DNA of 64,000 nt from a phage: the sequence record PZ445446.1. One strand, written 5' to 3'. The position numbers and the translations under genes are program-made. The notes under the pieces are model-generated. The model worked only from the letters and a program-made list of their open reading frames with translations, was not told where the DNA came from and made no database searches. Below, piece by piece: positions 863-54,403 of this stretch (position 1 is the stretch's first letter; every line of letters starts with the position of its first letter).

Positions 863-1627
863 TTGAAATTTATCTACAAAGAACACTACCACAAAGGTGT
901 TGTGTGGAGCCTATTTGACGGATCTGGTGGTGCAGTCATTGACTGGGCAAAAGCTGGATATCTGTGCCTGTGCTTTAACGCAAAAGGTGCTGACCACGGC
1001 AGTTATGCAGAGGTGATCACCGATCATCCAAATATTCACTATGTAGATTATTGGATTGATCCATGGTTCCCTCAGGAAACTTTCTGCATGTACCCAGCTC
1101 CGGACTTTGTTCTTGCATTTCCTCCGTGCACCCACTTAGCGGTGTCAGGTGCTGCACACTTTAAGAAGAAGCTGGCTAAGGACCCGTTGATCCAGATTAA
1201 TGCTGTAAAGGATGCTCGGGTTGCAGAAGAGTTGGGAGAGATTTACGATTGCCCGTGGCATGTAGAGAATCCTGTGGGTGTTATGTCCACACTGTGGCGC
1301 AAACCTGATTACCGTTTTCACCCTTCTGACTATGGCGGGTATTTACCGGAGGATGATGTAAACCCCTGGTTTCCTGAATTTATAGCTCCACGTGATGCCT
1401 ATCCAAAAATAACTTGCGGCTGGATAGGTAATGGATTTATAATCCCGGCCACAAAACCTGTCCCGCAAATAGTTGACGCGGTTAGCGGGTATTCCATGCA
1501 ACACGCCAAGCTGGGTGGAAAGAGTGCAAGAACGAAGATGATCCGAAGCCTCACACCACGTGGCTGGGCAAAAGCCGTATTCTTAGCAAACGAGCCTGTA
1601 GTAAGGAGCAGAATTAATGGGAAGTAA
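863..1627 (+). CDS. DNA (cytosine-5)-methyltransferase-like
   Basis: Motifs LFDGSGG (motif I-like), FPPCTHLAVSG (PC catalytic motif IV-like), HVENPVG (ENV motif VI-like), GNG near C-terminus; start moved to in-frame TTG 863 after terminator and GGAGA RBS (track start 833 lies inside hairpin). Confidence 0.55.
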   Translation: MKFIYKEHYHKGVVWSLFDGSGGAVIDWAKAGYLCLCFNAKGADHGSYAEVITDHPNIHYVDYWIDPWFPQETFCMYPAPDFVLAFPPCTHLAVSGAAHFKKKLAKDPLIQINAVKDARVAEELGEIYDCPWHVENPVGVMSTLWRKPDYRFHPSDYGGYLPEDDVNPWFPEFIAPRDAYPKITCGWIGNGFIIPATKPVPQIVDAVSGYSMQHAKLGGKSARTKMIRSLTPRGWAKAVFLANEPVVRSRINGK

Positions 1628-3695
1628 ATTTATGGCATCTGCATACAACCGTTTCGGTGAGCCAAACCCGAAAGCAACTAAGTATAAAAGTGGGGGAAGT
1701 GTGAAACGAGACTATCGTGATGAAAAAGAGGTTGAAACTGTAGAGACTGTTTTAGAAAATACTAAAATTGTCCCTGTTCCACAACAAAATATCGGTCTGA
1801 TGGCTGCACAATATTTTGGTGTGCGATCAGCATTGTCTCAAGAAGACGGTGTGACAGTTACTGCAACATATTTCCCATATTACGACCGCTACGGAAATCT
1901 GTCAGGTTTCAAAAAGCGTGACTGGACGATTCCTAAAGAGCAAAGGGGCCATTTCTCAGTTGTTGGCATAGTAAAGGCTAACTCTCAGATGTTTGGGCAA
2001 AAGCTGTGTGCATCTTCCAACAACCGTAAGCAAATTAACGTTTGTGAGGGGGAAGGTGATGTTATTGCAGCATGGCAGGCTGCATATCAGATACAAGTAA
2101 AAGGGATTCTCACCAACGCTAAAGCCCCGGCAAAGGTGAAGCAGTGGGCTAAAGAGGTCCAGGACGGGATCGATGCAGTTATCAACGGTGGTGATCTGGC
2201 AGGAAAACCCTGCCTACCTTTTGTTGGAATTAACTGTGGATGTGCAAACGCAGTAGATACTTTTGCAAACAATGAGAAGTTTATCCGTAGCTATGGAACA
2301 GTTGTGCTGGCAATGGATAACGATGCAGCTAACGAGGTAGAGAAGCAAAAACACGTCATTAAAGGTGTCGAGGCCACGCACAATATCGCAGCATTTTTGA
2401 TGGCTGATAACGTTTACCACGTAGAATACCCTGGTGAAGTAAACGACCCTGACGGTGTAAAAGATATCCGAGACATGCTGAAGGCTAAAAAGCTGGAAGA
2501 TATTGTCAACATGTTCCGGCATCCTGTTAAATATGTGCCTGATGCTGTGTCGGATTTAGAAGACTTCTCTATCGAGTCTTTGCGGAAAAAGACTTCCAAC
2601 GGGGTAGATATCAGCGCAGAGTTCCCAAAACTGCAAAAAATGCTAAAAGGCTTGCACAAAGGTACACTCGTAATGCTTACAGGCCCATCAGGTGGCGGTA
2701 AAACAACCGTAGCTAAAAAACTGGAACACTGTATTGCAAGATACCTAATGGACCCGACATGCCCGAAGGCTGATGACTATGAAGAGGATGATCGTCTATG
2801 TATGATCCATCTTGAGGAGGACCCAGAGGAAGCAATTAACTCCTTGTATGCAAACCAGTTAGGGTTTGATGTTAAAGAGTTTGTTGAAGATCCTAGCCAG
2901 TTTTTAACTGATCAAGAACACGCAGAGATTCATCAGTCATGGGCAAAAGCTGGAAAAATCAAAGTGTTCAAACATTTCGGGTCTATTCCGGTGGATGAGT
3001 TGATTACCAAGCTTAAGCAAATGGTTTGCCTGTACCATTGCCGTTATATTGTGCTGGATCACCTGTCCATGGTAATTTCAGGGCTTAATGTTAAGGATGA
3101 GCGAAAAGAACTGGACATGGCTATGACCCAACTGGCTGCGTTTTGTAAGCAGTTTAATGTGTTTATCTTGGTGATCGCTCACCTCAAACGTACAGAGATT
3201 GTGCCTCCTAAGGACAAGGATGGTAACCCGTTACCTTTCTGGTATCCTGTGCGAAAAGAGAATTTGCGAGGATCGGCTGGGCTTGAACAGTTGAGTTGGG
3301 TAGTTATAGGTGTCGAGGCCGAAGAAATGGTGGATCGTTCTCGTGGGCGTGTCCGTCTGGTAGGTCTTAAAAACCGTCCAGCAAAAACTTTAGGTATTGC
3401 TGACACTTTAGTTATGGACCCGCACACAGGTAAGTTCCATGATGCCAGTAACTGGTACTGGGACAAAGAAATGCAAATGTTTACAGACGGAGAAGGTGGG
3501 GAGGTTGTTTGGAGACCTCAGGCTATGTTTGAGGATCAGGAGCATGCAGTTGTAGAAACACCTATGGGCAAGGTTGTGGCTGATAAGGTTGTAACTCCTA
3601 CTGTTAAGCCTGTTGACACGCAGGAAGACCTCCAGTACGATGATCCGTCCTCTGACCATGTTCCTGGTTTTGAGGATGATGAAACACCTTTTTAA
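1617..3695 (+). CDS. T7 gp4-like primase-helicase (TOPRIM primase + DnaB-like helicase)
   Basis: TOPRIM-like EGEGD and AMDNDAANE motifs; Walker A GPSGGGKTT; AAGGAG RBS; acidic C-terminus ...DDETPF. Confidence 0.8.
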   Translation: MGSKFMASAYNRFGEPNPKATKYKSGGSVKRDYRDEKEVETVETVLENTKIVPVPQQNIGLMAAQYFGVRSALSQEDGVTVTATYFPYYDRYGNLSGFKKRDWTIPKEQRGHFSVVGIVKANSQMFGQKLCASSNNRKQINVCEGEGDVIAAWQAAYQIQVKGILTNAKAPAKVKQWAKEVQDGIDAVINGGDLAGKPCLPFVGINCGCANAVDTFANNEKFIRSYGTVVLAMDNDAANEVEKQKHVIKGVEATHNIAAFLMADNVYHVEYPGEVNDPDGVKDIRDMLKAKKLEDIVNMFRHPVKYVPDAVSDLEDFSIESLRKKTSNGVDISAEFPKLQKMLKGLHKGTLVMLTGPSGGGKTTVAKKLEHCIARYLMDPTCPKADDYEEDDRLCMIHLEEDPEEAINSLYANQLGFDVKEFVEDPSQFLTDQEHAEIHQSWAKAGKIKVFKHFGSIPVDELITKLKQMVCLYHCRYIVLDHLSMVISGLNVKDERKELDMAMTQLAAFCKQFNVFILVIAHLKRTEIVPPKDKDGNPLPFWYPVRKENLRGSAGLEQLSWVVIGVEAEEMVDRSRGRVRLVGLKNRPAKTLGIADTLVMDPHTGKFHDASNWYWDKEMQMFTDGEGGEVVWRPQAMFEDQEHAVVETPMGKVVADKVVTPTVKPVDTQEDLQYDDPSSDHVPGFEDDETPF

Positions 3696-3753
3696 TGTTT
3701 AACAAAGAGTGGGAGGGGTAGTACAACCGCCTCCCCTTTAAGGAGAACTGTAT

Positions 3754-6531
3754 ATGAGCATGTGGTCGTTCGATTTTGAGTCATCCGGTTTGCTGGAAGA
3801 CCCAGATCTTTATTATCACTGCGGCCTGTTTAAAGAGCTGAATAAGAACCGTTTTATGCTGTTCCTTCCTCTGAATGACCGCACACACTACTCCGAGGAG
3901 GATATAGAGAAGGCCAAGAACTTTATTCTGGCAAAGAAAACTCTTTATAAGGATTTTGAAGTTCGCATAGCAGATTTTTCGGAGTTGGAAGGTTGGCTTA
4001 CAGGAAATTCTGACTGGTCACCAACAGCTTTGAACTGCCATAACTGCTACAGTTATGACTTTATGCTGATGGAGAGATTATCCGGTATTCATTTTGATAT
4101 GTTCCGTGATCCTAAATGCATGGGGACTATCAACGACCACCAGGTTAACCTGTTTGATACGTTGGCGATGAGCAGAATCTTGTGGCCTGATCGCCCTTTA
4201 CCAAAAGGTTGTCCGGACTCTGTATTCAACCCGGTTACTAAGAAAATGCAGCCTGTTGGTCCTCACGGCCTTATGGCATGGGGCTACGCCCTTGGTAACC
4301 AGAAAGTTCAAATTGATGACTGGCGCGATCTTCCGTTGTGGAAGTATGTGGATCGTGTATTCGAGGACGTTATCATCCAGGAGCTGCTCTGGAAAGAGCT
4401 GGTAGCGGAATCAAAAGGTGTATTCTACGGCAAATCTGACATGCAGAACTTTATGTACGATCCAGCCAAAGAGAAGCCGAAAGGGTTCAAGAAAATCACC
4501 TGGAAGAACGCATTACGCCGAGGCATGCTGCAGCACTTCCTGATGGAGCTGCAGGCCCGTCAGGGTGTGTATTTCGACATAGATGGGGCTATTGCTTTAC
4601 GTGACCGTTGCGATGCGTGGATGAAAGAGATCGCTGATCGTGTTGAACCTCAACTTCCTTTAAAAGAGTTGTCAATGTCTCAGCGACCCAAGTTCCCTGA
4701 AAAGCCGTTTAACCAAGATGGGACAATCTCCAATAATGGTTGGAAATGGTTAAAAGATAAGCTTGGCTATCCTGTAGACATGAGCGCTTTAGAATTCAAA
4801 GCCCCGCCTAAGCGAGCATTTACCTCCACAGGAGATGTCAGCAAGATGGGGATAAAATGGTGCGAAGAGATGGGCTGCAAAGACCCCGACAAGATGGCTG
4901 ATTTCTTGAGAGGTTATATTAAGGGCACCTCCACACCACAACCTTTACCTAAAGAGCTGATGGATCAGGCAATAAGTGATCTGCAGCAGAAGCGAATGCC
5001 TGACTGCAAGATACCTATGAAAATCAGCAATCAGGACGACATTAAGCGATACCTGATCAGTGCTGGTTGGCTTCCGACAATGTGGAGAACTAAGGATGTA
5101 ACTAAGGACAGCAAGAAGAAAGCTCTACCTGATGCAGATGTTGATGCACGAGTATATGCATACATGGACGAGCTTTTAGAGTCAGAGTATTGTGACCTAA
5201 TTATCAACTTCTGGAACAAAACTGATGCTAAGTTTCAGACAACAGTGCACAAGTTCCGAAGCTTTCCTAACTCCGAAAGGATTAAAAAGGAAGTGTTCGG
5301 GAAAATACGCAGAAAAGCCAGGGCACTTATTACTTCTCCGCAACTGAAAGATACGTTTGGACACCTATGTCCGAATCTTGAAAAATTGAACGGAGAGATG
5401 GCTAAAGATATCGTCTTGTGGTTATCATTGCGAAACCGCAGATCGGTCCTTGATCCAATCAAGGAGGATAAGGTTGATACTGGTCTTCTTAATCACCCAC
5501 GTTTGAAGATTGACCATAAGCTTCCTGCTAAAAGCTCTGGATTAACAAACACTTCCCGACAGAAACACAGTATTTGTGCAAACATGCCTAAACCATCTCC
5601 TAAAGTGGTTATGGGTAAAGAGATGCGTAGCTTGTGGGGTGTTCCTCCTGGATATTTTGAGATCGGTATTGACGGGTCCAACTTAGAGCAGCTTATCGGG
5701 GCTTGGGGTGCCTTTGAGTTCGACAACGGCTTGTACTATGATGTTGTAAGTAACGGAGACGCACACCAAAACAATGCTGAGGCATATACAAAAGTAGCAG
5801 GCAGAGAGGTGTCTCGTAACGACGGTAAACCTATCACGTATGGGGTTATGTACGGGGCACAAAAAGATAAAGTTGCAGATATGCTGGATATCTCCCCAGA
5901 GTTGGGGCAAAGGGTGATCGATGCACTTTGGGATGCCAACCCCGGTCTTAAGGGGCGCAAAGAGGATCTGGAGAAATTCTGGGAAGCAACAGGTAAGAAG
6001 TTTATCTACTCTTTTGATGGTCATGCTATCTGGACCCGATCTAAACACTCTTTACTTAATGCATACCAACAAAATGGTGGTGCATCGCTGTGTGACTTAG
6101 TTGGGATACTCATGCACCACCAAATGGTGAAGCGTGGGTGGTACGATGAAGGTGTCCGTCGTATTATTTATTACCATGATGAGTACCAACTTCAGGTCCC
6201 TGACACACCTAAGTATAAGACTGTGTACACCTTCGACACAATTGAAGAATTGGAAGCATTTAAGGCAGAGCAGGAGGCCAAACTTCATGTGTTCGACGGT
6301 CATAAGTACAAAAAGGCACGCAAGGATGAAAACGGAAACGAAGTGGTTGACAGAGACGGAAACACGGTGTACGATCCTATCCTGAACGATGACGGAAAGC
6401 TTGAACTTATCTGGAGCCCTGTGGGTGAAATGGTGGTGCATTGCTTCTGGCAAGCTTCTAAAATGATGGGCGTTCCATTCCAGATCACAGGTGAATACTT
6501 GTGCGGTCGTAACTGGGGTGATTGTCACTAA
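3754..6531 (+). CDS. family A DNA polymerase, T7 gp5-like, with insertions
   Basis: N-terminal exo motif FDFESSG..YHCG; AWGYALG; motif B-like TYGVMYGAQ; motif C YYHDEYQ; C-terminal NWGDCH resembling T7 gp5 end; 925 aa. Confidence 0.85.
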   Translation: MSMWSFDFESSGLLEDPDLYYHCGLFKELNKNRFMLFLPLNDRTHYSEEDIEKAKNFILAKKTLYKDFEVRIADFSELEGWLTGNSDWSPTALNCHNCYSYDFMLMERLSGIHFDMFRDPKCMGTINDHQVNLFDTLAMSRILWPDRPLPKGCPDSVFNPVTKKMQPVGPHGLMAWGYALGNQKVQIDDWRDLPLWKYVDRVFEDVIIQELLWKELVAESKGVFYGKSDMQNFMYDPAKEKPKGFKKITWKNALRRGMLQHFLMELQARQGVYFDIDGAIALRDRCDAWMKEIADRVEPQLPLKELSMSQRPKFPEKPFNQDGTISNNGWKWLKDKLGYPVDMSALEFKAPPKRAFTSTGDVSKMGIKWCEEMGCKDPDKMADFLRGYIKGTSTPQPLPKELMDQAISDLQQKRMPDCKIPMKISNQDDIKRYLISAGWLPTMWRTKDVTKDSKKKALPDADVDARVYAYMDELLESEYCDLIINFWNKTDAKFQTTVHKFRSFPNSERIKKEVFGKIRRKARALITSPQLKDTFGHLCPNLEKLNGEMAKDIVLWLSLRNRRSVLDPIKEDKVDTGLLNHPRLKIDHKLPAKSSGLTNTSRQKHSICANMPKPSPKVVMGKEMRSLWGVPPGYFEIGIDGSNLEQLIGAWGAFEFDNGLYYDVVSNGDAHQNNAEAYTKVAGREVSRNDGKPITYGVMYGAQKDKVADMLDISPELGQRVIDALWDANPGLKGRKEDLEKFWEATGKKFIYSFDGHAIWTRSKHSLLNAYQQNGGASLCDLVGILMHHQMVKRGWYDEGVRRIIYYHDEYQLQVPDTPKYKTVYTFDTIEELEAFKAEQEAKLHVFDGHKYKKARKDENGNEVVDRDGNTVYDPILNDDGKLELIWSPVGEMVVHCFWQASKMMGVPFQITGEYLCGRNWGDCH

Positions 6532-6580
6532 TGTAAACTATCAGCACAGGGAGGTGCTGTTGAGCAAAGAGGAGACTTTT

Positions 6581-7280: not shown

Positions 7281-7290
7281 AGGAGGTAGG

Positions 7291-14160: not shown

Positions 14161-14489
14161 CAGAGATCATCGTTTCAACTGCAGGGTATGTATTCCTGAC
14201 AATCATTGCGTTGGCTATTCTGGTGGCGGTGTATGGATTTGTTATCCTGCCTATTCTTGAGACATTTAGCTTGTGTCGGTGTTGGAGAAAAGCTTACGGA
14301 CCACAACCGTGGAAAGACTGGTTTCATTTGGTGCGTATAGCGTTCTCTTATGCCTATGATCACTCCAGCAGTGCATGCGTAACCGGGTACCATGCCTACA
14401 ACTGGAACTGGGAAGGGCTTGGGAGATGGACTGTTACAAAAACTATACCCTTACGGTTGTATAAAGGAAAGAACACACTGGGAGCCTGA
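14157..14489 (+). CDS. hypothetical membrane protein
   Basis: ORF track 110 aa; hydrophobic N-terminal segment IIALAILVAVYGFVILPIL. Confidence 0.5.
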   Translation: MTEIIVSTAGYVFLTIIALAILVAVYGFVILPILETFSLCRCWRKAYGPQPWKDWFHLVRIAFSYAYDHSSSACVTGYHAYNWNWEGLGRWTVTKTIPLRLYKGKNTLGA

Positions 14490-14797
14490 TATTTTAAGTT
14501 ATCAGATTGCCAGAGATCAGGAGGATTTCTAAAATGGATTTCCTCCTTTTGATATTTTACCTACCAGGATATTTTAAAATCCTTAGAAAATCAGAAAATG
14601 GATCGAAAACTAAAATGGATTTTTCAGAGCAGGCACGACGAGATGAACCACTCATCCTATCGTCTGCACCATATTCCAGACCACCATTACAGATTTCCCG
14701 CACATGCTCACACCCTTCTACTAGAACTTCCCCCACTTACCCTTGACCTTTTATAGTAATAATCCAACCACTACCTTGAAGTTGTGGCGCAGCTTTC

Positions 14798-14990
14798 CAA
14801 GTACTCGATCTGTTTTTCGTTTCAAAGATTGAATTTTCTGAAAATTTTTCTCGATAAATTTCTCAGTACTCGATCTGTTTTTCGTTTTCTGAATCGGATT
14901 TTCTGGAAATCGTTCCGGCTCTCGACCTGAAATTTTTGGGGACGAAATCGATTTTTCGTTTTCAGAAATGGATTTTTAAAATTTCTATAT
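14798..14990. repeat. about three imperfect tandem copies of a ~66-bp unit (iteron-like)
   Basis: AGTACTCGATCTGTTTTTCGTTT perfect at 14800-14823 and 14865-14888; degenerate third copy; AAAATGGATTT recurs nearby. Confidence 0.6.
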
Positions 14991-15117
14991 GGGAATATTT
15001 TAGTGGATACTATTTTATAGGAAATTGTTACGGAGGATAATTAGCGTGCTAATTAAATTTATTAAATGCGAGGAGTTCTCATTTAGAATTTTGAATGATA
15101 ATCATTCTCGTTTGCAG

Positions 15118-15165
15118 AATAACGGGCAGGCCCGGTGATTGTCTCCCGGCCCCTACTGCCCCGGC
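15118..15165 (+). repeat. GC-rich structured element copy A
   Basis: GGGCAGGCCCGGTGATTGTCTCCCGG...; homologous to 15255 and inverted copy at 24225. Confidence 0.5.
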
Positions 15166-15254
15166 TTGTTATTATAGTAACACACAGGACAAAGAAAGCA
15201 AGAAGTTTTTGCATAAATTTTTAGACGATAATGATAATCGTTCTCATTTCATGC

Positions 15255-15300
15255 AGCGCCCATCCCCGGTGGTTGTCTCCCCCGTCACCGGTGCCTGCCG
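15255..15300 (+). repeat. GC-rich structured element copy B
   Basis: CCCCGGTGGTTGTCTCCCCCGTCACCGGTGCCTGCCG; internal CCGGTG/CACCGG stem. Confidence 0.5.
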
Positions 15301-15353
15301 TCCTTTCGATAGGTATATTTTGCCACCTGGCGGGGCCGCTGTCAACACTTTTC

Positions 15354-15367
15354 AAAAAAAAAAAAAA
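15354..15367 (+). repeat. A14 homopolymer tract
   Basis: 14 consecutive A in non-coding region. Confidence 0.7.
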
Positions 15368-15509
15368 TTCTAACCTGATGCGCTGACCGCTGCAACCTGG
15401 CGGGGCCAGCCTGGCAGGGCCTAACTGACCAGGTAGGAGAGAATGAAGGCTTGCAAACCTGGTGGGCCTATGCTATAGGATAGGTAACAATTGAAGAGGA
15501 GGTACAAAA

Positions 15510-15646
15510 ATGGAAGGTAATATGATCCCCCTGGTTGAAAAGGCTATGGCGGGAGCGTTGGAACATAAAGAAGAGTACGAAAAAATGATGGTTAACCTGG
15601 CAGGGGCGGCGGCTGGAGAATTCTACCCAAAAAATAATTTTAACTA
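15510..15646 (+). CDS. small hypothetical protein (45 aa)
   Basis: GAGGAGG RBS 6 nt before ATG; below track cutoff; read by eye. Confidence 0.35.
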
Positions 15647-15650
15647 ATGG

Positions 15651-15679
15651 TTGACAGCTCGGACAGTTCTTGTTATTCT
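15651..15679 (+). promoter_or_regulatory. sigma70-like promoter candidate
   Basis: TTGACA 15651-15656, 17-bp spacer, TATTCT. Confidence 0.4.
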
Positions 15680-15732
15680 TATCCTCACAAGGTGAACAAC
15701 ACCACACCAATTAACAGAGAGGATAAAAAATC

Positions 15733-15930
15733 ATGAACGCCTACGGAATTAAAGTACGTCGCAACACTCGCCAGGTGGTCACCAATCAAGTGATTTGCCG
15801 GGTGGATGTAACCATCAACAACGGGCAAGGCCTTTATAAATTTCGTCGCGGTCATAGCTATACCCTGCAACAGCTTAACCGTTGCGCCCTGACAAAAGGT
15901 CAGATCAACCACTGGTTTAATAAAAAATAA
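15733..15930 (+). CDS. hypothetical protein
   Basis: ORF track 65 aa; leader GAGAGGATAAAAAATCATG. Confidence 0.55.
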   Translation: MNAYGIKVRRNTRQVVTNQVICRVDVTINNGQGLYKFRRGHSYTLQQLNRCALTKGQINHWFNKK

Positions 15931-26500: not shown

Positions 26501-28060
26501 TCTATGCGTGAACAGTGAGGCATGCAATAGTAACAATTGTTATTGTATCCAGTGTGTTGAGTATGCCCAGTGTGTCACTATTATGTCATATTATGTCACA
26601 GTATGTCAGACAAGTTTTCCTCCTCTTTGTCAAGTGCTGCATGAAAAATTTACAAGCTTGTATGGTAGCATTTTTGCGGCCCTGTTTACATTCAGTGTTG
26701 TATGTATAATCCTTGTTGTGTGGGCGTTTAGACGTCTGGACGGTCAGAAGTTTGCAGGTCAATATCTAATCTATTGGCTGCTAACTATATCCCCCACAAA
26801 TAATAAGAAATATAATTGTTATGTGCGTAAACAGTAACCCATGTTATCAATCCCTGTATGTATCGCCAGTGGTGCGCATAATGGGTATTATGTTAAATTG
26901 CCCGTAATGATAACAGTTCTCACAATGATAGGTATTCTCATTCATCCACACAAAATAGGTTGCAAATGTTGTGCCACTGTGTGAACGGCCTGGCCTATTA
27001 ATTTCTCTCACTGCCTCGATATTTGAGAATTGTTATAAGAATGAGAAGTATTCCCATTCCGTCCGCCTGGCAGCACTCCAGTAGCTACCGGCTCCTGACA
27101 GGGCAGCACTCCTGTAGGTCAGGTCAAAATCGTGGTAGAATTGGGCCTGTTCAGATATTTCTGACTGACTCTTCAGATCTGTGTGGGAAAAGCCAACCTC
27201 TCCGGAGGGGCAGGGGAGGTCAATTAAAAAATTTACGTGGTGTATGAAGCGCTCTTCAGGTAAGGCATGTATTATGGGATGAAACCCTCTTCAGGCAATG
27301 ATATTTGTGGGTGTGATATTTGCTGGAAAGCCAGATATGACGGGACTCCCGGCGGGGATGGGGTAGTACAGACAGGGAAAATATGGGGATGTAGTTGGGT
27401 AAATTGATCAGACAGGTAGAGTATGGAATATGTTACAAGTATGTTAAATAGGGAGGATGAATATCTGCAGGATTTGTGTGTAAAATCAAAGACTTAAGTG
27501 GTGTTGTGGTATTTTCTATAAATAATTCAAGTTTAATAGGTAATATTTGTCTCTATCCACTTTGTGTGGTAAACAGATTCAGATGAAATTGGTTTACAAG
27601 TGTATACATAATATACAAATTAAAGATACAAGAAACCCCCCTCCCCCTTCGGCTACCATTCACCTTTTCCTCTGACTGGTACTTAAACACTTATTCAGAC
27701 TCTTCAGGTTATCACCCATATATCATATGGCAGTGACTGGTGTCCTCCGGCCCCTCTTTCGTCACCCGTCCGCTTCGCCATGCTAATGCCATAGCCAATG
27801 GTTCGGTTGTTCACTCTGTTCACTCAGGTGTATCTCCATACCCCTTCAAACCGAAGAGAACAGAAAACCCGAATTACTCGGTAAAAGAAAAGAGAAGAAC
27901 TTAATTTTATCAGGATAGGCAAGAATGTCAAGGCATGACTGCTCACTAAACAAGCAAACAGTCATGTGTGGAAGGTAAGTGATTGTGGTGGTGGGAAATT
28001 TAGTTGAAAGATGTGTTATAGGTGCGCTTCCAGCACTTTGGCCGGGCAGCTAATTGTGTG

Positions 28061-28276
28061 TCAGTCCAGCGGTTCATCCTCTACTTCACTGAAATCAATG
28101 TTCATGGTCTCCTCCCAACCATCGATCTCAGCACAAGAGTGGAGTTCTTTAGGGTTTACTCCCAAAGCCTCAGCAACAGAGTCTATATTTAACACCTCTG
28201 GCAGGTATGATTCATCGAATTCAAGGTAAATCAGGCCACGAGTGTTGTCAGCTCCACCAAATATCTCTATCTTCAT
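28061..28276 (-). CDS. small acidic protein
   Basis: ORF track 71 aa; GAGGAG RBS; starts MKIEI; D/E-rich. Confidence 0.5.
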   Translation of the reverse strand: MKIEIFGGADNTRGLIYLEFDESYLPEVLNIDSVAEALGVNPKELHSCAEIDGWEETMNIDFSEVEDEPLD

Positions 28277-28397
28277 GAAATCTCCTCTGGAAATGAGAGT
28301 GTGAACAGGGTTTTATACGTTCTAATGCACAGGAATTATACACGTTTGCCTCTTCAGGCCATGCTTTAGCATGAGGAACCTGTGTGGGCTCGGTGCT

Positions 28398-28610
28398 TCA
28401 TAGTCTACCACCTCTGAACTCTTCGTGCTCAGGCATAATAGAGAACCAGATATCTACGATGTCCTCCCACGTCAGGTCATCAGCCTCAGGATCTGTCTGG
28501 GACGAAGATGAAGAGTCCTCAGAATCTAAGTTTTCCTCTTTAACTGGCTCATCCAAGGGACATATGGTCACTCCTTCGGATGTCTCTTCAGATGCATGTG
28601 TGTTGATCAT
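28398..28610 (-). CDS. small highly acidic protein
   Basis: ORF track 70 aa; strongly D/E/S-rich. Confidence 0.45.
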   Translation of the reverse strand: MINTHASEETSEGVTICPLDEPVKEENLDSEDSSSSSQTDPEADDLTWEDIVDIWFSIMPEHEEFRGGRL

Positions 28611-28970
28611 GTTCCCCCCGTGAGTATTCCGGCAACAGCCGCTATGGAAGTAATGATCATCAGGATCACCACTAAAACTTCAGACAATGTTCTCATTGTA
28701 TATTCCATATTCTCCAAACTGTGTGTGGATACTATCACGGGAGCGGTAATGTGTCAACAGCAACGCCGCGAGGGTTTGGTTAAAATCCGAGCGTATGGTG
28801 ATTTGGGTCAAAACGGACGTGCGTTCTCGCTACGCTCGAAAGAGAGACTTGTTTGTAGAAAGCTCTTAAACGCTCTGTAACGAGATTATCTGTCCAAGGT
28901 ATGCAATCGTGCACCAGATAAAGAAAAGGACGCCACAGAGCGTCCTAGGTGTCTTAAATTTGATATTTTG

Positions 28971-38827: not shown

Positions 38828-39226
38828 TTACTGAACAGAGCGCGGTGCTGGGAAGGATAACTCTTCTAAAGAGAAGATTTCATTTCCTACCACCCAAGTT
38901 GCTGGGTCATCTGGATCAACAGGTTGGATAATCATTACCTCATCCGCCTCGCACACACGTTTCCCACCCATAGTAGCGTCAGCCACTAACATACGCGGCT
39001 CTTCAGAAATGCACAGGTAGCCACCTCGGCCCACTGTTCCTTCCACGGGATCCTGCCCTTTGACCACAATGAATACCTTCTCTCCTGTGGCGATATTACT
39101 TTTCACACTAACAGTTTGACCAACTTTAGATGTACCGATCTTGGTGGCTTCAAACATTAAATCCCGAATTACTGTTGCATAGTTGCCGGACACTTTCTTA
39201 CCTTCTTTAGTAATCTCAATCTTCAT
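38828..39226 (-). CDS. hypothetical protein
   Basis: ORF track 132 aa; starts MKIEIT. Confidence 0.5.
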   Translation of the reverse strand: MKIEITKEGKKVSGNYATVIRDLMFEATKIGTSKVGQTVSVKSNIATGEKVFIVVKGQDPVEGTVGRGGYLCISEEPRMLVADATMGGKRVCEADEVMIIQPVDPDDPATWVVGNEIFSLEELSFPAPRSVQ

Positions 39227-39495
39227 AATCTAGGCTCCTTAAATGAATCTATGTAATCAATTAAATCCCAAGCATCCCTATGACCTGTCAGAGGGTATAC
39301 TTCTCCAAGAGGGATCATAGCAATAAGTCTATCAAAAACCCAATCTGGACGCAACATTTTATGGTGATACTCCCACTCACCTTCTACAGACTTTTTCTGA
39401 GTGATCAGGATCTCTGTGTAGTGTTTCGCCTGTCTTGAGTAGATTGAGAATGACTTGTACATAAATGGCCCCCTCTTGTTGAAAACAAAATACAC
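39223..39495 (-). CDS. hypothetical protein
   Basis: ORF track 90 aa. Confidence 0.5.
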   Translation of the reverse strand: MYFVFNKRGPFMYKSFSIYSRQAKHYTEILITQKKSVEGEWEYHHKMLRPDWVFDRLIAMIPLGEVYPLTGHRDAWDLIDYIDSFKEPRL

Positions 39496-39497
39496 TA

Positions 39498-39782
39498 CTA
39501 CCAGGTCACTGTCAAGTAGGCAACTGTGTTATTTTTCTCCGGAGAGATGCCAACAACATCCACCTGCAGACCTCCTGCCCTCAAATCCCCAACAATGTGT
39601 GGGAAGTAGTCTGAGAGGTGTGATGGGAGATTTATCGAAAATCCACATCCCAGAAAGCCTGCTAACGCTTTATTTTGTATCTCCCCAACAATCGCATCAT
39701 AAATAGAGTTAAGCTCGTCAGGAAGCGTTACAGGACGTTTTAGCGCTAACTGGTGCAACTTGTCCTTAGCACTCATTTTCAT
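39498..39782 (-). CDS. hypothetical protein
   Basis: Track ORF 39498..39851 trimmed to internal ATG that forms ATGA overlap with upstream stop. Confidence 0.4.
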   Translation of the reverse strand: MKMSAKDKLHQLALKRPVTLPDELNSIYDAIVGEIQNKALAGFLGCGFSINLPSHLSDYFPHIVGDLRAGGLQVDVVGISPEKNNTVAYLTVTW

Positions 39783-40312
39783 TTCAAGTCTGCCTCTGGT
39801 GGTGCCAACCACATAAATGGCGGCAAGTCTAGACGGTTTTTCTTGTCCCATACAAAATATGCATATGCCTGCCCATCCGTTCTACCATTAGATTGGAATG
39901 ACGGACGCTTAGATATTGTGATCACAGTGGTAGGTGCATTATCAAGCCACCATTCAAATCTGGCCTTGCTTTCCAGAAAATTAAGACGCAAAAGCATAAT
40001 AACTACGTCGGCATCTTTCAACGCCTTGTCCACAAACTCACGAGCCAGGCTGTACGGCGGGTTGGTGATAATACAGTCAACATGGTTGTATTCTGTATTC
40101 AGATAGTCAACACCTTCTTGGATTTCTCCCCATGCAGATCCTAACGGCATACGGGAGTAGAACACACCTGAGGCACTATTCCTGCAAGGCTCTAAGTAGG
40201 TCCAGTCTTCTGGGAACGGAATAAGGTCATACAGCCCTTCTGCACACCACTCCGGTGTCACATACTCATCGTAGGCGTTACGTTGTTCATCAGGTTTTCT
40301 AGCACAAGTCAT
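39779..40312 (-). CDS. putative small N6-adenine/N4-cytosine-type methyltransferase
   Basis: DCIITNPPY motif IV-like (NPPY); 177 aa. Confidence 0.45.
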   Translation of the reverse strand: MTCARKPDEQRNAYDEYVTPEWCAEGLYDLIPFPEDWTYLEPCRNSASGVFYSRMPLGSAWGEIQEGVDYLNTEYNHVDCIITNPPYSLAREFVDKALKDADVVIMLLRLNFLESKARFEWWLDNAPTTVITISKRPSFQSNGRTDGQAYAYFVWDKKNRLDLPPFMWLAPPEADLK

Positions 40313-40363
40313 GCAAATCTCCAGATCATAAAAGCCCTCCGAAGAGGGCTTTAGAATTAATGT

Positions 40364-41413
40364 TTAAGCTTCTTCGACAATTCCTGCACCCAGGATTTTT
40401 TCATTGAGCTCTTTTGCTGTTTTAATAATATTGTCCACAAGACGCTTGCGAGTCTTATCTTTCACCTTAACCTCTTCACCGCCGTTCAGAGTAGTCTTCA
40501 ATTGAGACAGAATATCCTGAAGTTCAACGACAGAGAATCTCTGCAGATCTTCTGAAGTAATCTCACCCAGGGCAATTCGGACGGTCTCGCCACTTTCCAT
40601 CTGCAGATTCAGGAACACAGTGTGAACATCACCTTTCGAACCACCCGCTTTTGCAGATTCAACAGCATGAACTAACTCATCTAAAGATGTGCACTGATGA
40701 ATCTCCGGAAGACCTGCTTCACCTAACACGCCTTCTTCATCACCTTTTGCCAGAAGCTTTTTCGGTTTTTGTCCGTTCTGGATGCGTTGTATGTTGCCTT
40801 CATCCAGAATAATAGCTCCAGTGCGTGCTGCCAACTCTTCTCCGTCCAACCACACTTCGCCACCAGCTGTGATGGATGCGATCTCATCTTCTGTCAGCAC
40901 CCCACCGTAGTATTTTTCGATCAGGTGTTCAAAACGTTTTTTCCAGTAGCTGACCTGAGTATTCATGTTAACACCGTTACCATAAGTGCCACCTTGATAG
41001 TAGTGGAACATAAATTCTGTGTCCGGAGCCACAGTACGTTCTTTGCAACCAAGCCATAAGATTGTTCCAGCAGAGCAGCACATCCCTTCAGCATGTGCAA
41101 CAACGCTTGCCTGAGACTCGCGGAATGCCTGCAGATAGGCCATTGCAATGTGCACGCAACCACCAGGGCTATTGATGATCACACGAATGCTTTCTTCCGG
41201 CTGAGCCATACGGATCGTCTGCAGACGAGACATATGATCCTGCAGGTCCTCCAAATCGTCGATATAAAGAACGTGGTCAACAACAGGTGTTGGGTAGCTG
41301 TATGTTTCCATGATACCGCCCGGCATACCAAACATTTTATTACTCATAGGTTCGAAACCGTTCTGTTTTTCTTTCATGCCGTGTACCATGGTGCTGCGAG
41401 GTGTTAAATTCAT
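40364..41413 (-). CDS. ClpP-like (S14 family) serine peptidase with C-terminal extension
   Basis: INSPGGCV, GMCCSAGT (Ser site-like) and FMFHYYQGG (His site-like) in ClpP-like order and spacing; 349 aa. Confidence 0.55.
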   Translation of the reverse strand: MNLTPRSTMVHGMKEKQNGFEPMSNKMFGMPGGIMETYSYPTPVVDHVLYIDDLEDLQDHMSRLQTIRMAQPEESIRVIINSPGGCVHIAMAYLQAFRESQASVVAHAEGMCCSAGTILWLGCKERTVAPDTEFMFHYYQGGTYGNGVNMNTQVSYWKKRFEHLIEKYYGGVLTEDEIASITAGGEVWLDGEELAARTGAIILDEGNIQRIQNGQKPKKLLAKGDEEGVLGEAGLPEIHQCTSLDELVHAVESAKAGGSKGDVHTVFLNLQMESGETVRIALGEITSEDLQRFSVVELQDILSQLKTTLNGGEEVKVKDKTRKRLVDNIIKTAKELNEKILGAGIVEEA

Positions 41414-41473
41414 GAGAAATCCTTAATATTGGAAGTTGAAAGCTATTTATTTAAACCTGATTCACATTTACCT

Positions 41474-41785
41474 TTATTTAGCAATCACTATGGAGTACTT
41501 ACGATTGTCAGAAGCATCACAACTCAATGATTGCCAATCTACCACATACCACGTATCATTGTCAACAATTACTTTATCGCCTGTTCTGTAGCAAGTGCTG
41601 CTTTCAATAATTCGAGACTCGATAAAGAATCTGTGTCGGCGCTCACGTAGCAACGCTAAGTTGATTATATTACCACCGCTGTCCTTGATCCACACATTCT
41701 TGGATCCCTTATTTGCCAAAATTGTCTCGCCGTTATAGACAAACAGGCAGTATATTTTATTCAGTTTCTCTTGTATTGTAGCCAT
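41474..41785 (-). CDS. hypothetical protein
   Basis: ORF track 103 aa. Confidence 0.5.
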   Translation of the reverse strand: MATIQEKLNKIYCLFVYNGETILANKGSKNVWIKDSGGNIINLALLRERRHRFFIESRIIESSTCYRTGDKVIVDNDTWYVVDWQSLSCDASDNRKYSIVIAK

Positions 41786-43886: not shown

Positions 43887-46010
43887 TCAGCAACCACAAC
43901 TTCCGTAGTGCTTAACTCGCTCGATAACTTCCGCTTGCTTACCTTTATTGTAAGGACGGGAGTTAGGACTGGAAAGGTATCCAGACACACGTCGAATTAC
44001 ACTGATCGTTCCCTCTTCATGGTTTCCACACTCTGGGCATACAAAGCCTTTAGCTGTTGCACTGAACTCACCAGAGAAACCACACTTGAGACATTTATCC
44101 ACAGGCTGGTTAATACCAAAATACATAATGTGTTTATACCCGAAGTCAACAAGAGCCTCTAAAGCATCCAGGTTGTTTTTCAGGTTAGGTGTTTCTACGT
44201 ATCCGATGTTGCCACCAGAGGAGATCATAGCAAAACCTTCCTCATACTCCCACTTATCAAAAGGAGAGCTATTTATCCATACTGGCTGATGGAAACTGTT
44301 GGTGAGATATTCATGCTCGTGCTTCAACACTTCCGGATATTCACGATCCAGACAGGTTGCAGCTTTATAGCATAGACTCTCAGAAGGAGTGCCGTACAAG
44401 CTAAATGCTAGTCTACTTTCCTTCTTGTATCGCTCACAAGCATCTCTCATGTGCTGAAGGATTCCAAGAGCTAAAGCCTTGTCACCCTCTCTGCCCAAAA
44501 TCTGACAGGTTTCATACACACCGATATACCCAATACTGATGGAAGCGTACCCGTCATAGAAGAGTTTATCAATACTCTCTTCAGGATCCAGGCGAGCAAG
44601 AGCGCCTTCACACCACATGATGGGGTTCTGCCCTGCCTTTGTTCCTTTTAGACGATTAACCCTTACAAGGTGAGCCTCGTATGCAAGATCCAAGTATTCG
44701 TCAAGAACTGCAAAGAAATCAACACCTTCCGTCTTGGCTTTTGCCGCAATCATTGGCAGGTTAAGGCTAACAACGCCTAAGTTAAATCTGCCAAGGTATT
44801 TCTCCTCGCCTGTTTCCAAGTCATTGTATTTGCTAAGAAAACTCCTGCAACCCATGCTAGTTACTTTGCCATCTGTCGAGCCTGTCACTTTTCTATTTAG
44901 TGGTACAGATACGAAGTCAGGATAGATACGTTCTGCACAGCATTCCAGAGCTAATCGTTTCAAATCATAGTTAGGATCCCCAGGGTTCATGTTGACACCC
45001 TCTTCCAGGAAGAACAGCACTTTAGGGAACACAGGTGTGATACGTTCTTCACCAAGACCCATTTTGTGGACTTTCAGGTAGTTTTTGGTAATCATTCTAC
45101 CAAAGACCGAGGTATCCAGTCCTAAACTCAATGTGATGAATGGAGTTTGCCCGTTGACAGAAGTTAACGTGTTGATTTGATAGAGCAAAGTCTGCATGCT
45201 GTCAAATACGTCTTTATCTGTCATTTGCATTGCAACAGTTTCAGCATCCGGCAACCAATGTTCCTGGCAAAATTTAAGGTTCTTCTCATAGGTTGCTTCA
45301 GCATACTGTGCCAGATAATGATCAATATGGCTCATAGTCTGACCACCATATTGAGCACTAGCTACCGCACTAGAGATTTGGCTAAGGATTGTTGTTGCAA
45401 CCCCTATTGACTTCGGCTTGCTGACATGGGCGTTACCAATGTTGAATCCGTTTTCCAACATATCTGGATAATTTACCAAACAACAGTTTGTTAACGGACT
45501 GATCAAGTAGTCAAGATCATGCACATGGATGAATCCTTTATTGTGCTCTTCGGAGACACGGTCTGGCAGGATCTGTGTTGATGCAAGGTGTTTGCTAAGA
45601 ATACCTGCAAGCAGGTCGCGATGAGTGTGTACATGATTAGTAGGCTTATTTGCGTTTTCTTTTGTAAATTCATCACAAGTTCGATCCAAGAAGCCACTAA
45701 TATCTGCAAGCAGTTTTCCACCTGCCTCTCTGTTATTATCTCTTGTCTGTCTATACTGGATGTATTCTCTGGCTGCACATTTTAAACCCATATCCATAAG
45801 AGCATCTTCAACAAGGATATGGATATTTTTTACAGAGATCGTGCACTGGTCGGTTGGTAGATTGTTAGCAACAACTTCATTAACCGCGCAGGCGATCCGG
45901 TAAGCTTCTTCTTCAGTATGTCCAGACTCAAGTAAGGCGGACTCTGCCGCCTTGATCACCTTAATTCCGTTATAGAACTCTTCTCTACCGTCCCGTTTTA
46001 CAACTTTCAC
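43887..46010 (-). CDS. nrdD: anaerobic ribonucleoside-triphosphate reductase
   Basis: N-terminal ATP-cone-like; C-terminal CLKCG...CPECG zinc site and glycyl radical-like RVSGY; 707 aa. Confidence 0.8.
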   Translation of the reverse strand: MKVVKRDGREEFYNGIKVIKAAESALLESGHTEEEAYRIACAVNEVVANNLPTDQCTISVKNIHILVEDALMDMGLKCAAREYIQYRQTRDNNREAGGKLLADISGFLDRTCDEFTKENANKPTNHVHTHRDLLAGILSKHLASTQILPDRVSEEHNKGFIHVHDLDYLISPLTNCCLVNYPDMLENGFNIGNAHVSKPKSIGVATTILSQISSAVASAQYGGQTMSHIDHYLAQYAEATYEKNLKFCQEHWLPDAETVAMQMTDKDVFDSMQTLLYQINTLTSVNGQTPFITLSLGLDTSVFGRMITKNYLKVHKMGLGEERITPVFPKVLFFLEEGVNMNPGDPNYDLKRLALECCAERIYPDFVSVPLNRKVTGSTDGKVTSMGCRSFLSKYNDLETGEEKYLGRFNLGVVSLNLPMIAAKAKTEGVDFFAVLDEYLDLAYEAHLVRVNRLKGTKAGQNPIMWCEGALARLDPEESIDKLFYDGYASISIGYIGVYETCQILGREGDKALALGILQHMRDACERYKKESRLAFSLYGTPSESLCYKAATCLDREYPEVLKHEHEYLTNSFHQPVWINSSPFDKWEYEEGFAMISSGGNIGYVETPNLKNNLDALEALVDFGYKHIMYFGINQPVDKCLKCGFSGEFSATAKGFVCPECGNHEEGTISVIRRVSGYLSSPNSRPYNKGKQAEVIERVKHYGSCGC

Positions 46011-50469: not shown

Positions 50470-50528
50470 TATTATAGATTATCTGATACTATTAGTCAAC
50501 ACAAAAGTTACCTATCGCTGTGATAGGA

Positions 50529-51512: not shown

Positions 51513-51712
51513 TATTTAGCTCTCCTTGTTTTAATTTTGGAAATTTCGTCTGGGTTTATATTGGCCTTAAATGCAAGGTATCTGTTAAACATATCAGAGC
51601 ACATATCTTGGGTGATCCTGGAGGCATACACTAGCTTACCTCCTAGATCATACACCTCTAGCCAGTCACCATATCTGACTACAGGATCGCCACCTTTAGA
51701 ACATCTGACCAT
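51512..51712 (-). CDS. small hypothetical protein
   Basis: ORF track 66 aa. Confidence 0.45.
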   Translation of the reverse strand: MVRCSKGGDPVVRYGDWLEVYDLGGKLVYASRITQDMCSDMFNRYLAFKANINPDEISKIKTRRAK

Positions 51713-51713
51713 T

Positions 51714-52307: not shown

Positions 52308-52918
52308 TCTTCTTGGGCCTCTTTAGCATCAATATACTTGCACACAATCTCCGATGCACACTCCCAAGGTGCACCTTCAGGGTTTACAACATCAAACTCA
52401 ACCCCTTTTATTCCGTTCTTTTCCAGACTTAGATAGGTTCTGGAATCATTTCCCCAGTCATATCCTACACGGTGAATACGGAACAACAACAGATCTCCAC
52501 CTGTGCTGTATGCGTACTCGCTAAGGCATGCCAGCTCCTCTTTGAATCCCCCATCGGAGTAAACAATAACCCCTTTACCTTCAGGGAAATCTTTCTTCAA
52601 AGATGCGACTGCGGCTTTACCGAAAGCATCTTCACCAAAGATAGGTTTAATCAGATTTTCACTACAATGGATCATCCATTCTCGCGGAGAAACATGCTTG
52701 CCGTCTATCATTAAGAAAGGGCAAGGCTCTTCTTTGTAGTGGCGGTCATAAAGTGCATTCCAGAGTTGAGGAGTTACACCAGCTGCCTTAATTGCCACAC
52801 TGAAGAGCATCTCCTTAACCTCACGGTGGTGTGAGTTAGGAATAGCTTCCAACAAGAGATCTGCAATGTGATCCTTACCACTGCTGGGTGGGGCGTTAAG
52901 AACAATAATATCCATCAA
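52301..52918 (-). CDS. putative deoxynucleoside monophosphate kinase (T4 gp1-like)
   Basis: N-terminal LNAPPSSGKDHIADL resembles T4 gp1 P-loop region. Confidence 0.4.
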   Translation of the reverse strand: MMDIIVLNAPPSSGKDHIADLLLEAIPNSHHREVKEMLFSVAIKAAGVTPQLWNALYDRHYKEEPCPFLMIDGKHVSPREWMIHCSENLIKPIFGEDAFGKAAVASLKKDFPEGKGVIVYSDGGFKEELACLSEYAYSTGGDLLLFRIHRVGYDWGNDSRTYLSLEKNGIKGVEFDVVNPEGAPWECASEIVCKYIDAKEAQEEC

Positions 52919-53118
52919 AAACCTCCATGGTATTCTTCAACTGCATCAATAATACTTTTACACTTATCTACCAGCTCGTTAGCCACTACAGCGTCGTCTT
53001 CCCAAACAGCCTCCTCAATCTGATCAAGCAATGATCGCATCTTACTCATCATTTCTGGGATAAAGTTTTCTGAAAAGCTGTCTGGAATTGTTAACTCTAG
53101 TGTCATTTCGGTCTCCAA
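52915..53118 (-). CDS. small acidic protein
   Basis: ORF track 67 aa. Confidence 0.45.
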   Translation of the reverse strand: METEMTLELTIPDSFSENFIPEMMSKMRSLLDQIEEAVWEDDAVVANELVDKCKSIIDAVEEYHGGF

Positions 53119-53133
53119 TCATACTATGCGTTA

Positions 53134-53592
53134 TTAGAAGTTTGTTTTTACACGTCCCTTTTCATCAACCTCGTTGTTAGCTAAAAGCGTTACAAAGTCT
53201 GTGAAACGGACATGAAGAACTCTTTTCTTATCAAGGTATCCTAAAGCCACCCCTGAGAAATTTAGCATCAAAGGGGCTAAAGAAGCTCTGGCACTGAAAT
53301 GCTGTTGTTCTACCCTTCCAACACCCTTAGTGTAGGATGGGTTAAGATTGTAAGTTCTGAATCCCAGTTTTGTTGGAGCTTTAGAATTAAAAACGACTTT
53401 ATAGCGTTTCTTACTCAACTTATGCTCCAGGATAAGCATTCCCTTATCACCTTTGATAAGTTGAAAATCTGTAAAGTGCTCTTTTAAGACGAAAGGTAGT
53501 GCCAGTCCCATCGCCTGTCCTCTTTGTACCGCTGTCTCACCAAAAGCTTTTGCATCAGTAAGTTCTTTGGTCAAGTCTATGCTTTTGATCAT
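53134..53592 (-). CDS. hypothetical protein
   Basis: ORF track 152 aa. Confidence 0.5.
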   Translation of the reverse strand: MIKSIDLTKELTDAKAFGETAVQRGQAMGLALPFVLKEHFTDFQLIKGDKGMLILEHKLSKKRYKVVFNSKAPTKLGFRTYNLNPSYTKGVGRVEQQHFSARASLAPLMLNFSGVALGYLDKKRVLHVRFTDFVTLLANNEVDEKGRVKTNF

Positions 53593-54403
53593 ACCTGGTC
53601 TCCAAAATGTATTGTAGTTCTTTCTTACCTATACTCTTCATTCCAGCAGTCTTACCTGCTTCTTCTTGAAAAGAAGAATAGCATTCAGCAAACACTCTGT
53701 CAACACCGTTAACTAAAGATTTTATGAAATATGTTGATTCTTCAGATTTTGGGTCATCATCCCCCAATACTTTTCCAGCATTATACCCAACACGTCTTAC
53801 ACAGAAGTCGTAGTCATCTGGTGTGCTAAAAGAAAATAACTTATTCTCTCCAATCTCTACAGGATCCCTATTGCACGCCTTTTTCTCCCAAATTTGGAAA
53901 ACACATGGCACGTCATAAGGTTTGCCATTAAGTAAAAACGAATTCTTAGGGCACCTTTCGCTGTAGACAAGGTGCATCGACATGTCCAGTTTGTTTGCAA
54001 AAAATATTTTTTCAAATGTCCGTGGCAAGATGAAGGCTATAGCCCCTCCAAGCTCTAGCAATGATGCACAATGGTTAAAGAATTTGCAAGCTAAGGATGA
54101 ATTCTTGCCAAATGGTGGGTTACCTATGAAGACATCTGCCTTGGGATGCACCTCCAAGAAGTTTGCCTGAATGCACGGTGTTGGTCCTTCAAATTCAGGA
54201 TCTGGTACTAAATCGTACGACAGTATCTCTGAAAATAGTTTTGAAAAAGAACCCCTTCCAGCAGAAGGCTCAACGTATGCACAATTCCCATACTTATCTT
54301 TTACTTTACCAACAAGATATTCTGCATACTCAGGGTTTGTGTAGTATTTGTCGTTGGACTCTTTCTTGCTCAAAGTGCCTCCAAAAGGAAAAGGGAGGCG
54401 CAA
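53555..54403 (-). CDS. N6-adenine-type methyltransferase (DNA or RNA target not resolved)
   Basis: SAM-binding-like VEPSAGRGSF then FIGNPPFG motif IV. Confidence 0.6.
   Translation of the reverse strand: MRLPFPFGGTLSKKESNDKYYTNPEYAEYLVGKVKDKYGNCAYVEPSAGRGSFSKLFSEILSYDLVPDPEFEGPTPCIQANFLEVHPKADVFIGNPPFGKNSSLACKFFNHCASLLELGGAIAFILPRTFEKIFFANKLDMSMHLVYSERCPKNSFLLNGKPYDVPCVFQIWEKKACNRDPVEIGENKLFSFSTPDDYDFCVRRVGYNAGKVLGDDDPKSEESTYFIKSLVNGVDRVFAECYSSFQEEAGKTAGMKSIGKKELQYILETRYDQKHRLDQRTY

Follow-up and report, generated by a model that had tools for sequence, protein, structure and literature searches.

Three probable orphan DNA methyltransferases of an rV5-like Escherichia coli phage

Three methyltransferase genes in a Vequintavirus genome

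We analyzed a 64,000-nucleotide stretch of phage DNA (sequence record PZ445446.1; this whole stretch is referred to as the window), which contains three methyltransferase genes, one for a protein of the C5-cytosine type (254 residues) and two for proteins of the N6-adenine type (177 and, probably, 272 residues). We consider it quite likely that all three encode orphan DNA methyltransferases that mark short sites and give the phage a narrow protection, at a cost imposed by retrons. In the mechanism we propose, the three S-adenosylmethionine (SAM)-dependent enzymes would methylate newly replicated phage DNA; the most likely benefit would extend only to restriction enzymes that cut exactly GATC, GTAC, or the C5 site, in the course of a replication presumably too fast for the host Dam and Dcm to keep pace, and the cost would arise because retron defence systems sense phage methylation.

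The three open reading frames (ORFs) listed by an earlier sequence-only reading are all present, at 863..1627 (plus strand), 39779..40312 (minus strand), and 53555..54403 (minus strand; its start is revised below), and all are annotated as methyltransferases in near-identical BASEL phages. Their products match PHROG families (E = 9e-87, 5e-67, and 4e-129 for the 254-residue, 177-residue, and third protein, respectively), and protein searches returned hundreds to thousands of homologues of each; the ORFs are therefore far beyond chance. None of the three window proteins alone reaches a Pfam gathering score, and direct sequence searches of the PDB with the three proteins gave nothing meaningful, so the sequence matches to solved structures reported below came from family profiles only.

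Nucleotide comparison places the window in Vequintavirus, the rV5-like E. coli myoviruses, with 97-100% identity to Vequintavirus genomes that annotate the same three genes. The genome is mosaic with respect to several relatives that have been sequenced. Window positions 1-4000 share 99.9% identity with Escherichia phage MaxBurger (Bas54), positions 39000-41500 share 100% with phage PMBT16, and positions 53000-55500 share 99.8% with slur16 and WalterGehring (Bas51). For each of these three regions, about 120 phage records reach 90% identity or more. In MaxBurger, one of the ORFs is labeled "Dcm-like C5 cytosine methyltransferase" and the other two "putative N6 adenine methyltransferase", and papers on related genera had already noted both adenine and cytosine methylases in the Vequintavirinae. 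The three methyltransferases are already known and annotated in public records of the genus; the discovery value is small, since the genes are annotated and both the GATC enzyme and a relative that is 53% identical to the C5 enzyme have been characterized experimentally.

We regard the three genes as orphan methyltransferases because no recognisable nuclease partner adjoins any of them. Of the flanking ORFs, four have PHROG matches of unknown function alone and none to a nuclease Pfam family, and no restriction enzyme gene is listed in annotated relatives. An ORF at 53134..53592, which overlaps the end of the 272-residue gene, was considered as a relative of the bacterial partner gene described below, and was found to be unrelated (hhalign probability 0.2%). 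All three methyltransferase genes lie within replication and nucleotide-metabolism modules (primase/helicase, ClpP-like protease, DnaQ-like exonuclease, and NrdAB adjoining).

The 177-residue enzyme and GATC methylation

The features of this gene are as follows.

39779..40312, minus strand: predicted core-only N6-adenine DNA methyltransferase gene, 177 residues (ORF; 100% amino acid identity to the Bas51 and Bas54 orthologues)
40052..40063, minus strand: motif IV codons N84-P85-P86-Y87 (T83, N84, P85, and P86 invariant in family alignment A4)

The 177-residue protein is 100% identical in amino acid sequence to bas51_0176 of Bas51 (Escherichia phage WalterGehring), and the two genes have the same ClpP-like protease neighbours, while the surrounding genome is mosaic. 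It was found that Bas51 mutants escaping the retrons Asa1 and Squ1 were all altered in "an adenine methyltransferase", in which the authors rebuilt the changes D69G, D79G, and T83P (PMC12548924). We find D69, D79, and T83 at exactly those positions of the 177-residue sequence (T83 immediately before NPPY), and these residues are conserved or invariant in the family (alignment A4). According to the source data of the same study, nanopore sequencing of wild-type Bas51 gave N6-methyladenine (m6A) calls at 1405 GATC, 509 GTAC, and 576 other positions, and the T83P mutant gave 35 GATC, 511 GTAC, and 349 other (Fig 4f of PMC12548924). By our count, the Bas51 genome contains GATC 703 times (1406 adenines) and GTAC 258 times (516 adenines); because the m6A counts nearly equal the adenine counts, GATC and GTAC are about 99-100% methylated in Bas51, and because T83P, of these two motifs, loses GATC only, GATC methylation depends on the 177-residue gene and GTAC methylation does not. 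The enzyme is thus shown, for the identical Bas51 protein, to turn essentially every GATC into Gm6ATC. The same GATC enzyme triggers the retrons Asa1 and Squ1 (PMC12548924).

The 177-residue protein carries YVTPEW (residues 17-22, motif X), LEPC (residues 40-43, motif I), and TNPPY (residues 83-87, motif IV, including the NPPY that had been recognized from sequence). The order X (YxTP), I (EPxxG), IV (NPPY/F) is common to M.TaqI, the gamma-class enzymes, and both the 177- and the 272-residue proteins. The profile of the 177-residue family matches M.TaqI (E=3.3e-5), aligned to M.TaqI residues 21-111, which hold motifs X, I, and IV; and the protein aligns over its whole length to residues 11-176, the core, of the 272-residue family (hhalign probability 97.3%). 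It ends about 90 residues past NPPY, where M.TaqI's catalytic domain also stops, and the separate C-terminal target-recognition domain of M.TaqI is missing from it. Judged from these alignments, it is a core-only gamma-class (TaqI-like) enzyme that lacks a separate recognition domain, and the suggestion of a minimal target-recognition domain holds for this enzyme. Describing the two smaller proteins as unusually short is right only by the measure of textbook enzymes: among the matches listed, relatives of the 254-residue protein have 219-262 residues (120 proteins) and those of the 177-residue protein 132-264 (mostly 160-227), so both lengths are the norm for their families.

The product, Gm6ATC, is also made by E. 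coli Dam and T4 Dam (alpha class), as well as by small phage Dam proteins (PF05869/TIGR01712), whose profiles of about 165-170 positions are similar in size to the 177-residue protein. The 177-residue protein falls below the cutoffs of both profiles (19.2 bits against 28.1 for PF05869, and 16.1 bits against 97 for TIGR01712), and no alpha-class Dam family is among its matches. The enzyme is therefore Dam-like in action, yet a member of neither Dam family.

The 272-residue protein and its probable link to GTAC methylation

Three features belong to the third gene.

53555..54373, minus strand: predicted gamma-class (TaqI-like order) N6-adenine methyltransferase gene, 272 residues with a C-terminal domain of about 100 residues (PHROG 5172, E=4e-129; annotated with 272 residues in MaxBurger and Bas51)
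54110..54121, minus strand: motif IV codons N-P-P-F (N95-F98 in the numbering of the 282-residue form; GNPPFG invariant in family alignment A2)
54383..54411, minus strand: terminator-like hairpin and T-run that hold the TTG at 54403 (hairpin 54411..54392, TTG in the loop)

The NPPF motif that had been reported for this ORF stands, as part of GNPPFG; its start at 54403 does not. The TTG at 54403 was rejected as the start, as it lies in the loop of a terminator-like hairpin (54411..54392), residues 1-15 of the longer form are modeled at a pLDDT below 50, and the homologues begin at "MSK". From these sequence features, the third gene is probably 53555..54373, with 272 residues, as annotated in MaxBurger and Bas51. 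The family motifs DKYYTNP, EPSAGRGSF, and GNPPFG are invariant or nearly so (alignment A2), in the gamma order X-I-IV. The AF2 model of the third protein has a pLDDT of 90.5; TrmN, M.TaqI, M.BseCI, CamA, and type I M subunits can be superposed on its N-terminal 180-200 residues, and the C-terminal domain of about 100 residues has no detected counterpart. A search of a viral fold library found no relative of known specificity. The 272-residue enzyme would thus consist of the same catalytic core as the GATC enzyme, followed by a C-terminal recognition domain of about 100 residues.

E. coli K-12 is not known to have a GTAC methyltransferase, and the GTm6AC of Bas51 therefore needs a phage enzyme. 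The phage has four methyltransferases, not three: a further gene lies just upstream of window position 1 (64323..65648 in Bas54, MZ501093, and 14456..15781 in locus L006 of Bas51), ending 402 bp before the window start. It encodes, in both Bas51 and Bas54, a protein of 441 residues that clearly matches PF01555 and has the motif DPPF. Besides the GATC enzyme, the 272- and the 441-residue enzymes are the only N6-adenine candidates for GTAC in the phage. We infer that the 272-residue enzyme is probably the one that makes the complete GTm6AC of Bas51, and we favour it over the 441-residue enzyme. A DNA substrate is favoured for the 272-residue enzyme because its core is shared with the GATC enzyme, because some of its bacterial homologues are found in gene pairs that resemble restriction-modification (RM) systems (see below), and because GTm6AC is complete in Bas51.

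A related example is M.HpyAXII of Helicobacter pylori, a TaqI-like enzyme of 331 residues with motif IV at about residue 87, which methylates GTAC, blocks RsaI, and belongs to an RM pair with an R.PabI-like enzyme (PMC2588503). M.HpyAXII and the 272-residue enzyme are both TaqI-like, and are likened here by description, the link being an analogy only; in addition, M.HpyAXII is paired with a restriction enzyme, whereas the phage gene has no recognisable partner of this kind. No Helicobacter locus is among the 79 bacterial loci with homologues of the 272-residue protein. In the literature, we found no RsaI digestion or methylome of a Vequintavirus beyond PMC12548924, and nothing on phage methylation in the Druantia and O-island papers.

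We also counted the two sites. GTAC is under-represented in the window (124 sites, compared with 161.6 +/- 13.2 expected), and its observed/expected ratio in the Bas51 genome is 0.59, where only CTAG is more depleted, although GTAC is fully methylated there. GATC is not depleted (observed/expected 0.99-1.06 in the window and the Bas51 genome).

Bacterial homologues and a conserved partner gene

Directly after the gene for a homologue of the 272-residue protein, and in the same orientation, 22 of the 79 bacterial loci carry a conserved gene for a protein of about 210 residues, an arrangement like that of an RM operon. The partner gene is found about 800 nucleotides past the point where the methyltransferase match begins, in loci L013, L018, L034, L035, L037, L040, L042, L048, L049, L054, L056-L058, L060-L063, L065, L069, L075, L078, and L079 (the last from Litorimonas sp. 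RW-G-Af-16). The partner proteins share the motifs HGK.FE..K and TSIK, and the invariant residues in their alignment (A3) include H11, G12, F15, E16, K20, D48, K58, and a block from N162 to R172. The partner protein matches no entry in Pfam, NCBIfam, or the PDB, and for this reason it gives no specificity for the 272-residue family.

Judging by gene order and conserved motifs, the partner is possibly an undescribed restriction endonuclease family. Our more specific proposal, that the 272-residue enzyme represents an unrecognised family of small GTAC-specific gamma-class adenine methyltransferases, paired in bacteria with an undescribed family of restriction endonucleases of about 210 residues, is tentative, and we rate it as somewhat less probable than its opposite. 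The observed/expected ratio of GTAC is 0.69 in loci with the partner and 0.77 in those without it, a difference that is too small, in sequence that is too short, to decide the matter. If the proposal is true, it defines a new type II RM family and assigns the GTm6AC mark of Vequintavirus to a gene. The conserved bacterial partner gene may in any case point to a new restriction enzyme family.

The predicted 254-residue C5-cytosine enzyme

The C5-type gene and the sequence upstream of it contain four features.

863..1627, plus strand: predicted divergent C5-cytosine DNA methyltransferase gene, 254 residues (ORF; PHROG 757, E = 9e-87; annotated in MaxBurger and "Dcm-like" in BASEL phages)
1121..1129, plus strand: motif IV codons P87-P88-C89, with the predicted catalytic Cys (invariant in the 28-sequence family alignment A1)
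1265..1273, plus strand: motif VI codons E135-N136-P137 (ENP invariant in alignment A1)
767..841, plus strand: sigma-70-like promoter at 767..795 (11/12 matches) and then a terminator-like hairpin at 816..841 (from a consensus scan only)

The 254-residue protein contains the motifs LFDGSGG, FPPC (with Cys89), and VENPVG. The first (residues 16-22) corresponds to motif I (FxGxG, SAM binding); its G20 and S21 are nearly invariant in alignment A1, and the family profile aligns this stretch to the motif I region of DNMT3B. The PC motif of the sequence-only reading was borne out (P87-P88-C89), while its ENV is really an invariant ENP: in motif VI (E135-N136-P137-V138), the Glu and Asn of ENV are kept and the Val position is Pro. 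PPC, ENP, and a further motif, RSLTPRG, are invariant across the 28 diverse homologues. The family is large (3533 proteins in the protein search) and occurs in 1528 phage records, many Drexlerviridae among them. PF00145 is matched by 20 of the 28 homologues (best E=1.3e-6), and a PDB search with the family profile matched only C5 methyltransferases, weakly.

The AF2 model of the 254-residue protein (pLDDT 87.7, pTM 0.88) gave, in a Foldseek search against the PDB, top matches that were all either catalytic domains of DNMT3A/3B or 3g7u, the methyltransferase of prophage CP-933R. DNMT3A/DNMT3B are the best structural match (E ~6e-6, TM ~0.55) and, like the 254-residue enzyme, have a very small recognition region; they share 13-17% sequence identity with it, and the DNMT3 enzymes are eukaryotic, multimeric, and CpG-targeting. 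The models of both the 254-residue and the third (272-residue) protein show a class-I SAM-methyltransferase fold, and the virion DNA of Bas51 is adenine-methylated, so the two observations that the sequence-only reading had named as evidence against it, proteins without a SAM-binding fold and unmethylated virion DNA, were not made. Its claim of multi-site genome modification by two chemistries is supported, in part by the published m6A counts for GATC and GTAC in Bas51.

A homologue is found in the Drexlerviridae: bas06_0055 of Bas06 (KarlJaspers) is 53% identical to the 254-residue protein over the full length (E=9e-86), and shares with it the PPC/ENP spacing, the small size, and a DNMT3A-like model. 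In phage K42, which is a strain of KarlJaspers/Bas06, a "Dcm" gene of 711 bp was found to trigger the retron Ec86, and the K42 Dcm raised 5-methylcytosine (5mC) on multicopy single-stranded DNA (msDNA), as measured by LC-MS (liquid chromatography coupled to mass spectrometry), while its C82A/E128A/K175A/K176A quadruple mutant gave no rise of 5mC on msDNA (10.1101/2023.08.16.553469). The Bas06 "Dcm" gene is exactly 711 bp long, and the K42 protein is near-identical to the Bas06 homologue. C82, E128, and K175 of K42 Dcm are equivalent to C89, E135, and K182 of the 254-residue protein. We infer that the 254-residue protein makes 5mC as a minimal, DNMT3-like member of the C5-cytosine methyltransferases, and CCWGG, taken over from the Drexlerviridae homologue, is a possible site. 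The probable recognition region, a loop at residues 196-215, has no sequence resemblance to that of the K42/Bas06 "Dcm", and the target site may therefore differ.

The TTG at 863, which an AGGAG precedes, is the most likely start of the 254-residue gene. A longer form with a GTG start at 833 was rejected, as that codon falls within the terminator-like hairpin at 816..841. This strong hairpin, with a T-run, lies directly before the C5 methyltransferase start, and the near-consensus promoter at 767..795 (TTGACA, a 17-nucleotide spacer, and TACAAT) falls within the last part of the gene upstream; together, 767..841 may combine a terminator with an early or middle promoter. A similar promoter was described in the CB7 paper, in the region with the DNA helicase, methylase, and polymerase genes of that phage.

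Alternative explanations

Two observations weigh against a protective role for the three enzymes. The BASEL study found the Vequintavirinae "exceptionally susceptible" to all types of RM systems tested, without effective protection, and in the case of GATC, the T83P mutant of Bas51 plates like the wild type when no retron is present (PMC12548924). The label "likely anti-restriction" is thus not supported in its broad sense: since the Vequintavirinae are susceptible to RM systems, protection can only be narrow, limited to the few sites that are methylated. The enzymes could instead be real and serve mainly the metabolism of phage DNA, for example by keeping MutH from nicking GATC sites that are unmethylated or hemimethylated, in the timing of transcription or replication, or in recognition for packaging. 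This would fit the RM sensitivity, the location of all three genes within replication and nucleotide-metabolism modules, their conservation across about 120 genomes (nucleotide identity of at least 90%), and the fact that GTAC is both methylated and under-represented. The wild-type plating of T83P in the laboratory, on the other hand, shows that basic DNA metabolism can proceed without GATC methylation, and the RM systems of the BASEL study do not target GATC or GTAC, which leaves protection of specific sites compatible with the reported susceptibility. On balance, we find a main role in DNA metabolism rather unlikely, and prefer narrow, site-specific protection with a cost. The methyltransferases are also liabilities, as Asa1 and Squ1 sense the GATC enzyme and Ec86 senses the C5 enzyme's relative from the Drexlerviridae. 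In practical phage work, it depends on the methyltransferases which restriction enzymes and which retrons are evaded or triggered by an rV5-like phage used in therapy.

The activities assigned to two of the proteins must also be weighed against other readings. The 272-residue protein might methylate RNA (ribosomal or transfer RNA, as METTL5 and TrmN do), or be inactive on DNA, with the 441-residue Mod-like enzyme making GTm6AC. The best PDB matches of the 272-residue family profile are the RNA enzymes Ta1320 (E=1.2e-4) and METTL5, the top Foldseek match of the model is the tRNA methyltransferase TrmN, 7 of 34 relatives match the rRNA adenine dimethylase Pfam family, some carry the JGI label "predicted RNA methylase", and the 441-residue protein, with its PF01555 match and DPPF motif, could be responsible for GTAC instead. 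These points are set against the rest of the evidence: most of the other top structural matches are DNA methyltransferase structures or subunits (M.TaqI, the StySJI M subunit, M.BseCI, and CamA), the family core is common to the GATC enzyme, which is proven on DNA, and the RM-like pair occurs in 22 of the 79 bacterial loci. Moreover, type III Mod subunits are the closest solved relatives of the 441-residue protein; such subunits typically methylate asymmetric sites, on a single strand, and the 349 "other" m6A calls in the T83P mutant could be the product of the 441-residue protein. On balance, we regard this alternative as rather unlikely, and continue to prefer the 272-residue protein for GTAC. 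Finally, the 254-residue protein might be catalytically dead, or might add a group other than methyl to C5 of cytosine, as do the phage C5-carboxymethyltransferases that a recent report describes (PMC12783734). Consistent with this, the window protein has no PF00145 match at E<=1, motif VI reads ENP, no motif VIII (QxRxR) is recognisable after motif VI in alignment A1, and K176 of K42 Dcm, the second lysine of a KK pair, is Ile in the 254-residue protein. We found no measurement of 5mC for any Vequintavirus in the literature. The invariant K182, R228, and R233 may replace QxRxR in this family. However, the invariance of PPC, ENP, and RSLTPRG in 28 homologues, the 5mC made by the 53%-identical K42 enzyme, and the lack of any gene for synthesis of an alternative cofactor in the annotated genomes make this quite improbable, and methylation of cytosine by the 254-residue protein is the reading we retain.

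Additional observations

The number of "other" high-confidence m6A calls in T83P (349) is close to what an asymmetric 5-bp motif would be expected to give in 140 kb (approximately 275 sites), and a third adenine motif may be present in Bas51 DNA.

Each of the three window regions is also matched by 16-20 GenBank records named "Campylobacter phage" (MG0656xx, stated host C. jejuni); those listed are 96-98% identical to E. coli Vequintaviruses, and the host label looks doubtful. Where the genes change from the plus to the minus strand, a segment of about 2 kb (window 26800..28900) is without an annotated coding sequence in MaxBurger or Bas51; it contains short ORFs only, and no tRNA, Rfam match, or notable repeat was found in it (scans of the whole window for Rfam families and tRNAs also gave no match). 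The class III ribonucleotide reductase gene of the window (43887..46010) is a single intact ORF of 707 residues; in MaxBurger and Bas51, the same gene is annotated as two pieces around a homing endonuclease gene.

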